A stretch of DNA of 64,000 nt. Source: Carcharhinus amblyrhynchos. Lineage: Eukaryota. The notes beneath the pieces were generated by a model. That model searched no databases and had not been told where the DNA came from. It was given only the letters and a program-made list of their open reading frames with translations. The stretch is from assembly GCA_965287045.1 (NCBI GenBank), contig OZ336871.1:107818001-107882000 (forward strand), in the 5' to 3' direction. This document shows, in pieces, positions 46,178-49,191 of the stretch. The translations under genes were made by a program, and so were the position numbers. The stretch's first letter is position 1; each line of letters opens with the position of its first letter.

Positions 46178-46762
46178 CTGGCCGTTCTTACACAGGTCTG
46201 CCCACATACTGGTACCGTCCCCTCCTCTCATCAGCACATGGTAGGTGAAGAAGTAGATGCCGGGGATGGAGCAGGTGAACTTGCCGGTGGTGGGGTCGTA
46301 GTGGTTGCCTAAGTTGGTGACCACGTCGTCGAACTTGAGCATCTCGTAGCCTTCGTGCGGCCGCTTGAGGCCGGCGTAGAAAGCGATCTTGGGCACCGTG
46401 CTGTAGGTGGCGGCGCTGATGGCTCCGGCGTTCGGCCCGGGAGGTCCCGGTAAGCCGGGTAACCCCGGTCTCCCCGGCTCCCCCTTGCTACCCGGAGGTC
46501 CGATGGAGCCGGGGGGTCCCGGTTCGCCGGGCGGGCCCCGGGGGCCGGCTTTGCCCGACCTGCCGGGCTCCCCTTTGGGTCCTTGGATGAAGGTGGGCAA
46601 GGGCATGACGCTGTGATCCCGCACCGTCTCGGCCGCCGCCGTGGTGGCTTTGGTGCCGTACGGGTCGCACACCATCCGGCAGGTGCCCAGCATCTCGTAG
46701 TGAGCCGAAGTGCCGGCCGAGTTGACCAGCACCGGGATCAGGATGACCAGAAGCAGCACCAT
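46178..46762 (-). CDS. C1QL3: Complement C1q-like protein 3, coding exon 1 (signal peptide, CxxxC, collagen Gly-X-Y, start of gC1q)
   Basis: [35 protein letters not shown]...[22 protein letters not shown]...[48 protein letters not shown]...ADLCKNGQ; donor CAG|gtaagc. Adjacent to PTER, as in other vertebrates. Confidence 0.96.
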
Positions 46763-46852
46763 GAGGACTCCCACCGCCGCGGCGATCAGTCGCTTCTTGC
46801 GGACCACCCGGGTGAGAGGGGGGCGATCGTCCTGTCTGCTTTTGGAAGAAAT
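46763..46852 (-). CDS. C1QL3: Putative AUU-initiated 30-aa N-terminal extension of C1QL3
   Basis: The minus strand reads cagccaccaccATTtct (ATT at 46852-46850), in frame with the ATG at 46762 and with no stop: (M)[29 protein letters not shown]. Confidence 0.75.
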
Positions 46853-49191
46853 GGTGGTGGCTGTGTGCGAACCGGGACCAGAGAGAAAAAAGGAGGGAGA
46901 CTTTGGCAGTGTAGCCCCGGCCTCTTGAGCTTGACTTGTCTCCCAGTGCAGAGAGAGCGGCTCGGATGCTGCCCAAGGCTGGAGCTGGTGAGTGAGGGCA
47001 CTGGCTCACACCGCCTGCAATTTAAGAGAGAGGGCACGGTCTTGCAAGAAGCTTCTTCTCACGCCTCCAGCCACTTTCCACCTGTCCCGATCCTATATTC
47101 ACGTGTGAGCAGAAGAACAAATCATCTCAGAGCACACAAGCCAAAAAAAAAACCGGGTTTCCCTCTGTCCTTATCGAGTTAGTGGCGATCGACTCCCTCT
47201 CTCACACAACAACAAAAAAATGTGACTTGTCCGGCTCGCCACTCGATCACAGGGAGCCGCCGAGGATCACAGAAAGTGGCACACGTTAAGGCAACCTGTT
47301 ACGCCCACCCCCTGCCACAGACTGATCAGAAACAGTCACTGAAACTTCCTTCTCTCGCTGCACCCCCTCCCAAAATCACAGTGATGGGAACAGCTCCGAA
47401 TCAGCTCCACAACACACGTAAACACACACAGTCCGAAAGAGAGCGAGACTGAAAGCACTGCCTGTCGACTCACTCTCCAAGCCGCGAACTGAATAGAAGG
47501 TAAACTGCAGCCTCCCAACGGGGGGGAAAGCTCATTTGAAAGTCTAATTGGCAACAGACAGAAGCAGCACCCCTGCCAGTGGCAGTGTCTATGTGTATAT
47601 ATAAATATATATATATAAAATACCTGCCAAATCGCTGATGCATATGAGTTAGTCTAGCATTGTCGAGTGAGTGTCGTACACTGTTTACCGGAATATTTAA
47701 CATTATCGACATGCAAGAGTGAGTACTTTACCGGCACTATCTTCCCTTTTCCTTTTTACCTGATCTGCTCAGATCATATACCGTGACACCAGAGAACAAA
47801 GCGAAATCGATCGTTCATCCTTAATATAAATGTCAGTTCCTCTGTTTACAGACACTGGACTGAGTGAGCTTGCAAGCTGCCCAGTTTCCGCATGTAGCAG
47901 GGACACAGGCAAGTGTTTGATATTACTGCACATTCGTCAGCCCTGAGCTGACCAGCACTGATAAGGATACTTGGCGGGTTTTTTTTTAATGTCAAGTTGC
48001 GAATATACTGCATGTTTATTTCCTGAAACATGCGAAACGACACCTAAAATGTGTCAAATCTCAATTAAGAGCAACTTCCTCATTCGAAACGGACAGGTTG
48101 TACTGAGGGTTGAATCTGTTAAAAGAGCAGATGAACAGAGGAAGTATCTCATTCCAGCTTTTATACGGGAAGGTGGTAGTTGCAGAATTTTACCAAAGTT
48201 CAGCATCTGACATTTAACTATTCTTTGTGGATCAGATTTGTTCATTTTTTTTTCAAGTCAACAGATAAATAAGAAAAGGTGTAAAAATATCTGTTCCCTT
48301 TTCGTCTCTCATATGAGCATGATGCAGGGATTTTGATCTTCACACCTTACCTTGTAATTGTCAGCAGTGGCAGAGGACAACTGCTTTCTTTCACATGTTT
48401 GATTTAACACAGACCTCACGCCACCTTAGAATTCAGTGTCCAACCCTTCCAGCGCCGCCTTCTAACCAGCGCACTTTAACATCTCCGGGCCGGGAGACAC
48501 CAGTCACAAAGATCAGTTTCATATTGGGACAGTGGTTGGGGAAAATGATGCGGAATAGCATTCTGTCCTTTGGTTTCGCCCCGCGGTTTAACGCAGGTGG
48601 GCTGAAGTAATTAAATAATAGACTGGAAACATCCAGTCTTTTTTCCCTCGAACAACTGGCTAACAGCTGGCTAACAACTCTGACAGAGCGGCTACCATCG
48701 TGTTGCCCCCTTGCTCAGTAAGTATTCAATTACATAAAAGTCAAAGCACGAAATCAGAGCATTGAGGACTTGAACAGTCTCTGTGAATCTACCCTCCACT
48801 GGGGGGGGGGGGGGCTAGTCTTAATCGCATTTACTCATCCTATTCCCACACCCCTTTCCTATACCCCTCCTGTCCCTATAGTTTATTCAATCTCATCTGG
48901 CAAGTTGACATCTTCTTTGCATCAACAACCAACTCTGGAAGCCAATTCCACAGCCTGACAACTTTATCTGGAAACAGTCCCTGTTGCTAACTTGTCTAGG
49001 GGATATCCATAGGGGATAGGGCCTGGGTGCAATTGTTATCGGTGCAAGCTCGATGGGCCGAATGACCTCTTTCGGCACTGTAGGGATTCTATAATTGTAT
49101 AATAATAAATAACTCCTGTTTAAATGTTTGACTTTAATTTTCCTCTCTTTTGGCAATTTTTCTCACCACTACGCCCTCCTCTCCCCCAGTG

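Follow-up and report, generated by a model that had tools for sequence, protein, structure and literature searches.

A conserved AUU codon upstream of the AUG of shark C1QL3 and the membrane-anchored long form that it is predicted to encode

N-terminal extension from a non-AUG codon has been described for the C1QL genes of vertebrates. Ivanov 2011 lists C1QL1-4 among ten genes with a non-AUG extension conserved in all vertebrates with sequence (PMC3105428). In the text of later papers, the C1QL ATT is reported to be conserved in lamprey (PMC11623489), and the C1QL4 extension is documented with peptide evidence and an alignment that includes lamprey (PMC11317171). According to the main text of a preprint (bioRxiv 10.1101/2024.02.16.580719), C1QL1, C1QL2 and C1QL3 each give two proteoforms in HEK293T cells, and mutation of the AUU or of its context abolishes long C1QL2. 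The long C1QL2 is membrane-bound in neurons, and its N-terminus brings GFP to the surface. Transmembrane segments are predicted there for all four long C1QLs, membrane anchoring having been tested for C1QL2 only, while C1QL3 is represented by two bands and a Phobius prediction; the same authors stress downstream RNA structure. One ribosome-profiling study favoured CUG and GUG starts for human C1QL3 and C1QL2 (as reported in PMC11317171). Extensions placed before signal peptides are described as usually blocking secretion and as mostly degraded, and the long C1QL forms are called 'non-secreted' (PMC11623489).

The mechanism and its age are already published. A preliminary description of the shark locus analyzed here correctly pointed to AUU-initiated C1QL extensions from mammals (PMC3105428; bioRxiv 10.1101/2024.02.16.580719), and its proposal that the switch is older than the split between sharks and bony vertebrates agrees with the ATT reported in lamprey (PMC11623489, PMC11317171). 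Within the article text covered by our literature search, no paper named the AUU of a shark C1QL. The word 'shark' is absent from the main text of PMC3105428 and PMC11623489.

The window, that is, the whole stretch of DNA analyzed, comprises 64,000 nucleotides of the Carcharhinus amblyrhynchos genome. By its sequence, the gene under study is the C1QL3 orthologue of a cartilaginous fish. The following features place it in the window:

45023..45202, minus strand: coding part of C1QL3 exon 2, with the second half of the C1q domain, 59 aa and the stop (PF00386).
46178..46762, minus strand: coding part of C1QL3 exon 1 from the AUG, with the signal peptide, the collagen repeat and the first half of the C1q domain (PF01391, PF00386).
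42577..42834, plus strand: open frame with the C-terminal part of PTER (phosphotriesterase-related), a tail-to-tail neighbour (PF02126, profile positions 230-298).

The coding part of exon 1 ends at CAG|GTAAGC at 46178, and the second half of the C1q domain lies within the open frame 45023-45301. Matches to PF01391 and to the two halves of PF00386 indicate a collagen repeat followed by a C-terminal C1q domain. The closest database match is C1QL3 of Heptranchias perlo (98% identity), which falls into a cluster of C1QL3 proteins from sharks and rays. A search of the genome returned 52 matches, four of them strong C1QL loci. In a 20-row tree, from which P0018 was left out with its cut motif missing, the gene groups with named C1QL3 proteins at a support of 89/84, under the star threshold of the tool. 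The same tree joins locus L004 to C1QL1/CRF (100/99) and L002 to shark proteins that carry the name C1QL2; L003 was assigned to C1QL4 on the strength of its extension, which shares 23 of 31 residues with that published for human C1QL4, counted by eye. The tail-to-tail adjacency of PTER and C1QL3 is also the human arrangement. The database match, the tree grouping and the PTER neighbour all favour the identity C1QL3 given in the preliminary description, and the places of the other three paralogues are filled by other loci.

From the AUG, the predicted chain has 254 aa, the most frequent length among the chondrichthyan C1QL3 orthologues listed; from the AUU discussed below, it would have 284 aa. 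At least 13 of the 22 chondrichthyan cluster members, counted among the 15 listed, have 254-256 aa. P0030, P0130, P0138, P0143 and P0032 of Callorhinchus are annotated from the canonical Met, and the extension is absent from all 15 chondrichthyan annotations listed (of 22 cluster members). Elsewhere in the window, open frames at ~31900-33200 (minus strand) and 41240-41575 (plus strand) resemble C-terminal fragments of LINE reverse transcriptases of the CR1/L2 type.

The start region of the gene contains the following elements:

46850..46852, minus strand: AUU near-cognate codon and likely upstream start, gccaccacc-ATT-t; the Ile position is conserved in homologues and paralogues.
46760..46762, minus strand: canonical AUG, gtcctc-ATG-g, the start of annotated orthologues.
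46763..46852, minus strand: 30-codon in-frame N-terminal extension, which shares 20 of 30 residues with the one published for human C1QL3 (by eye).

The minus strand reads gccaccacc-ATT-tct from 46861 to 46847, with the A of the ATT at 46852. As the preliminary description had it, this codon precedes the AUG at 46762 by exactly 30 codons in the same frame with no stop in between; the stretch between the two is also free of ATG in all frames on this strand. The frame is closed on the 5' side by a TGA at 47008, the nearest in-frame upstream stop. The first in-frame ATG, GTG or TTG past this stop is the GTG at 46807, which fits the earlier remark that the open reading frame track had picked this codon. 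The near-textbook Kozak context claimed for the AUU holds for its 5' side but not for position +4, which is U instead of G. The AUG is weaker in having C at -3, but it keeps G at +4 (gtcctcATGg), so its context is moderate rather than poor. Of the four shark paralogues, C1QL3 comes closest to the Kozak consensus on the 5' side of the AUU, and it alone has a pyrimidine at -3 of the AUG.

An arrangement of this kind also arises elsewhere in the window. On both strands, 86 of 2491 ATG triplets are preceded by an open in-frame ATT with a purine at -3, 20-40 codons on the 5' side, and CCRCC-ATT occurs in the same position for two of the 2491, one of which is C1QL3. What lifts the C1QL3 AUU above chance is its conservation and not its context alone.

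At each of the other three C1QL loci of the same genome, an ATT stands in frame 29-31 codons ahead of the ATG with no ATG in between, and all three extensions contain a basic cluster and an apolar run. Each of them aligns to the extension of C1QL3 better than 500 of 500 shuffles, and L002 and L004 have an in-frame stop only 4 codons on the 5' side of the ATT. Within the extension, nucleotide identity to the paralogues is highest at codon position 2 (0.63-0.79 vs 0.45-0.53 at position 3), while upstream of it identity is 0.20-0.40 at all codon positions. The ATT, the open frame and the codon-patterned identity are found in all four paralogues.

In L004, a C1QL1-like locus on the minus strand (G000:C27:5518358-5521990), the context of the homologous ATT looks weaker (aag-ATT-c). 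This locus also has an in-frame acc-ATC-a 14 codons before the AUG and directly ahead of a basic SRK, a second near-cognate codon that could act as a substitute or an extra start. The genome also harbors clusters of C1q-domain genes at ~73.43-73.67 Mb of G000:C7 and at ~1.03-1.17 Mb of C42, with open frames of >600 aa in the C7 cluster.

Comparison with other species was based on a homologue search with residues 1-55 of the long form, which matched 29 proteins. Teleosts, a frog, a snake and a whale are among the named homologues that read through the Ile position. In the 17 of 29 that do so, mean identity is 65% in the extension vs 17% over up to 15 residues upstream, a contrast biased by a query that itself started at the Ile. 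The remaining 12 were excluded for starting within the extension or for having no Ile or no canonical Met; for P0007, the scripted Ile position fell two residues too early in this comparison. A second, unselected set came from a search without the extension, which gave 100 new matches, 17 of them with enough upstream sequence. In six of these 17, similarity to the first 21 residues exceeds that of 95% of shuffles, compared with one of 17 for the upstream stretch; 15 of the 17 are divergent teleost c1ql3b-type chains. Between human and shark C1QL3, 20 of the 30 extension residues are identical by eye (mRNA and protein in the PMC3105428 supplement), and at seven of these 20 the codon has changed synonymously. 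Codons 1-11 are the best conserved, eight of the 11 being identical to human in DNA (by eye). Judged from these alignments, coding-type conservation begins at the AUU/Ile codon. As the first 11 codons are conserved in DNA and protein beyond what an anchor needs, they could reflect a function of the tail or an RNA-level constraint on initiation.

Codon-patterned conservation across paralogues and vertebrates argues against the stretch being an untranslated relic in this species or lying outside the transcript, as does a 10-mer of the leader, 342 nt upstream, that is shared with the human mRNA. We regard such a relic as scarcely credible. The AUU start proposed for C1QL3 is one on which homologues, the three same-genome paralogues and the text of the published papers agree.

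Several homologues differ in the placement of their Met residues. In teleost c1ql3b-type chains (P0055-P0057, P0086, P0092), the canonical Met is replaced with Leu and a new Met lies 10 codons on the 5' side, where the apolar run begins. Such chains often have Leu or Thr at the Ile position, both of which near-cognate codons can encode. These protein sequences hint that the switch may have been rewired in the teleost c1ql3b-type duplicate. Several of the proteins P0019-P0025, P0028, P0029 and P0040 carry an internal Met in the extension, located at the basic cluster, immediately ahead of it or where the apolar run begins; AUG-started intermediate forms would be expected from such residues. The caecilian P0025 has Leu in place of the canonical Met. 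The N-terminus of P0095, labelled Lampetra planeri C1QL3, resembles teleost c1ql3b; mislabelling or contamination is possible, and this protein was kept out of the lamprey evidence.

The putative leader on the 5' side of the AUU contains three further elements:

46885..46891, minus strand: U-rich tract whose end lies 33 nt on the 5' side of the AUU; in the human mRNA, a similar tract stops at the same distance from the AUU (by eye).
47185..47194, minus strand: 10-mer 342 nt before the AUU, found at a single place in the window; the leader of the human mRNA has it ~344 nt before the AUU (by eye).
47099..47125, minus strand: 8-codon upstream ORF from the ATG at 47125, 273 nt before the AUU, which may belong to the leader.

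These landmarks, picked by eye and read here from genomic sequence, suggest that the leaders of shark and human C1QL3 are collinear. No ATG was seen by eye in the part of the human C1QL3 leader that matches the upstream ORF. The in-frame CUGs at 46951 and 46909 were rejected as starts, as their stretch is not conserved and their contexts are no better.

The extension might also be read from another start, either the GUG at 46807, the CUG at 46789 or an AUG in a further exon on the 5' side, joined by splicing to the CAG at 46862-46860. Both near-cognate codons exist in frame, some homologues have a Met within the extension, and a pyrimidine tract and ACAG stand ahead of the AUU context. CUG and GUG have, moreover, been proposed from profiling for human C1QL3 and C1QL2 (PMC11317171). 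Nevertheless, conservation starts at the Ile, with its best-conserved codons directly following, and mutation of the AUU removes long C1QL2 (main text of bioRxiv 10.1101/2024.02.16.580719). The splice acceptor at 46862 was rejected, because ~25 nt separate the end of the pyrimidine tract from the AG and because the mature human mRNA contains a comparable tract at the same distance. We consider another start very unlikely for this gene.

The N-terminal region encoded from the two starts is composed as follows:

46790..46801, minus strand: RKKR basic cluster, codons 18-21, predicted cytosolic flank (sequence, charge balance).
46724..46789, minus strand: apolar run of 22 residues (codons 22-43), which is predicted to act as the signal anchor in the long form (hydropathy).
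46703..46762, minus strand: 20-residue signal peptide of the short form, with a predicted cut after GTSA.

The translation and the RKKR cluster directly before a 22-residue apolar run are as the preliminary description gave them. The apolar run amounts to 22 residues from the AUU vs 13 from the AUG, and its top 19-residue Kyte-Doolittle mean in the long form is 3.18. Net charge is +4 in the 15 residues before the run and -0.5 in the 15 after it. With ~20 apolar residues near the N-terminus and an excess of positive charge on their N-terminal side, the long form has the sequence traits of a type II signal-anchor protein, and the positive-inside and charge-difference rules predict an N-in, C-out orientation. 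These values bear out the signal-anchor layout proposed before, and homologues, three paralogues and papers concur. The RKKR cluster was rejected as a furin site, since the predicted topology puts it on the cytosolic side.

The 22-residue run, starting at residue 22, suits targeting by SRP, which counts against a long chain that is made but remains cytosolic or is degraded without membrane insertion. Such a fate would accord with the report that extensions before signal peptides are mostly degraded and with the mere designation of long C1QL forms as 'non-secreted' (PMC11623489). The text of the same paper, however, treats C1QL as a conserved exception, and long C1QL2 is found in the membrane (bioRxiv 10.1101/2024.02.16.580719), making failed insertion highly improbable.

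Signal peptidase requires small residues at -3 and -1, which is the basis for the predicted cut after GTSA. This GTSA|H site is unchanged in the long form, where it follows the apolar run. The AUU could be used and the long chain still be cut there, so that the extension would act as a long, slowly cleaved signal peptide that tunes the timing or amount of secretion. The intact motif speaks for such processing, and published fractionation covers C1QL2 only (bioRxiv 10.1101/2024.02.16.580719). On the other hand, HEK293T cells produce two proteoforms when C1QL3 carries its native leader, implying that the long chain persists uncut, and long C1QL2 is membrane-bound and its N-terminus surfaces GFP (main text of the same preprint). 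The apolar run is also of equal length, 22 residues, in three of the four paralogues. Slow cleavage therefore seems unlikely to us, and the uncleaved anchor remains the preferred reading.

We consider it probable that the conserved AUU 30 codons on the 5' side of the AUG makes shark C1QL3 a gene with two usable starts, giving a 254-aa chain predicted to be secreted and a 284-aa chain predicted to be anchored with its N-terminus inside. By analogy with the mammalian work, part of the scanning ribosomes would initiate at the AUU and the rest would leak to the AUG. The short chain, with its 13-residue core, would be cut at GTSA|H and secreted. In the long chain, the extension would add a 21-residue basic tail and lengthen the apolar core from 13 to 22 residues. 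As sequence rules and the behavior of C1QL2 suggest, the signal peptide would then no longer be cleaved but would hold the chain as a type II anchor, with the collagen and C1q domains on the outer side. Anchoring of the long shark C1QL3 in the membrane is thus inferred from C1QL2.

The better 5' context of the AUU and the weaker context of the AUG, relative to human, could shift the balance of the two forms toward the long one in sharks, as far as one genome can tell. A more far-reaching reading, which we hold to be rather doubtful as a whole, is that this balance is the reverse of the human one and shark C1QL3 is mainly a membrane protein whose cytosolic tail (SKSRQ..DR) acts as a sorting or signalling element, that long chains tether short ones in mixed trimers, and that the choice of start sets how much is fixed and how much released. 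The mainly membrane-bound state is suggested by the best 5' context of an AUU and the only pyrimidine at -3 of an AUG among the four paralogues; the role of the tail is suggested by conservation far beyond the need of a mere anchor.

Taken at the level of sequence, a published translation switch that annotation omits is seen here in a cartilaginous fish for all four paralogues, filling in a lineage that is unnamed for C1QL in the literature searched. The conclusion on age is unchanged, because lamprey already brackets the origin. The findings direct attention to the anchoring of long C1QL3, to the role of its conserved cytosolic tail and to start contexts in relation to the long-to-short ratio between lineages.

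Compared with the AUU extensions of vertebrate C1QL1-4, the shark locus has the same gene and codon, a homologous extension, a basic motif and an Ala/Val/Gly-rich stretch (features described in PMC11623489), and the extension is likewise present in all four paralogues. On every feature that the analysis could decide, it appears to be a member of the published C1QL AUU extensions. The differences lie in detail: the extension has 30 codons in shark C1QL3 vs 32 in human, ACC instead of AAA precedes the AUU, C instead of G occupies -3 of the AUG, and the 8-codon upstream ORF 273 nt before the AUU sets shark C1QL3 apart from the published extensions. As in the switch between signal peptide and anchor that was tested by mutation and fractionation for mammalian C1QL2, the upstream AUU of shark C1QL3 is predicted to make the apolar core longer and to supply a basic tail. 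Downstream RNA structure, which the preprint stresses, does not rise above shuffled background in shark C1QL3 (93 nt downstream of the codon, -29.3 kcal/mol, first stem at nt 20, z -0.02); the three paralogues give z values of 0.46, -2.49 and -2.16. A more distant parallel, from the same preprint, is the CUG/AUG switch of the neuronal pentraxin receptor, which belongs to an unrelated family, uses CUG instead of AUU and has the anchored form as its canonical one. There, likewise, leaky scanning past a near-cognate codon yields an anchored and a secreted synaptic organiser from one mRNA.
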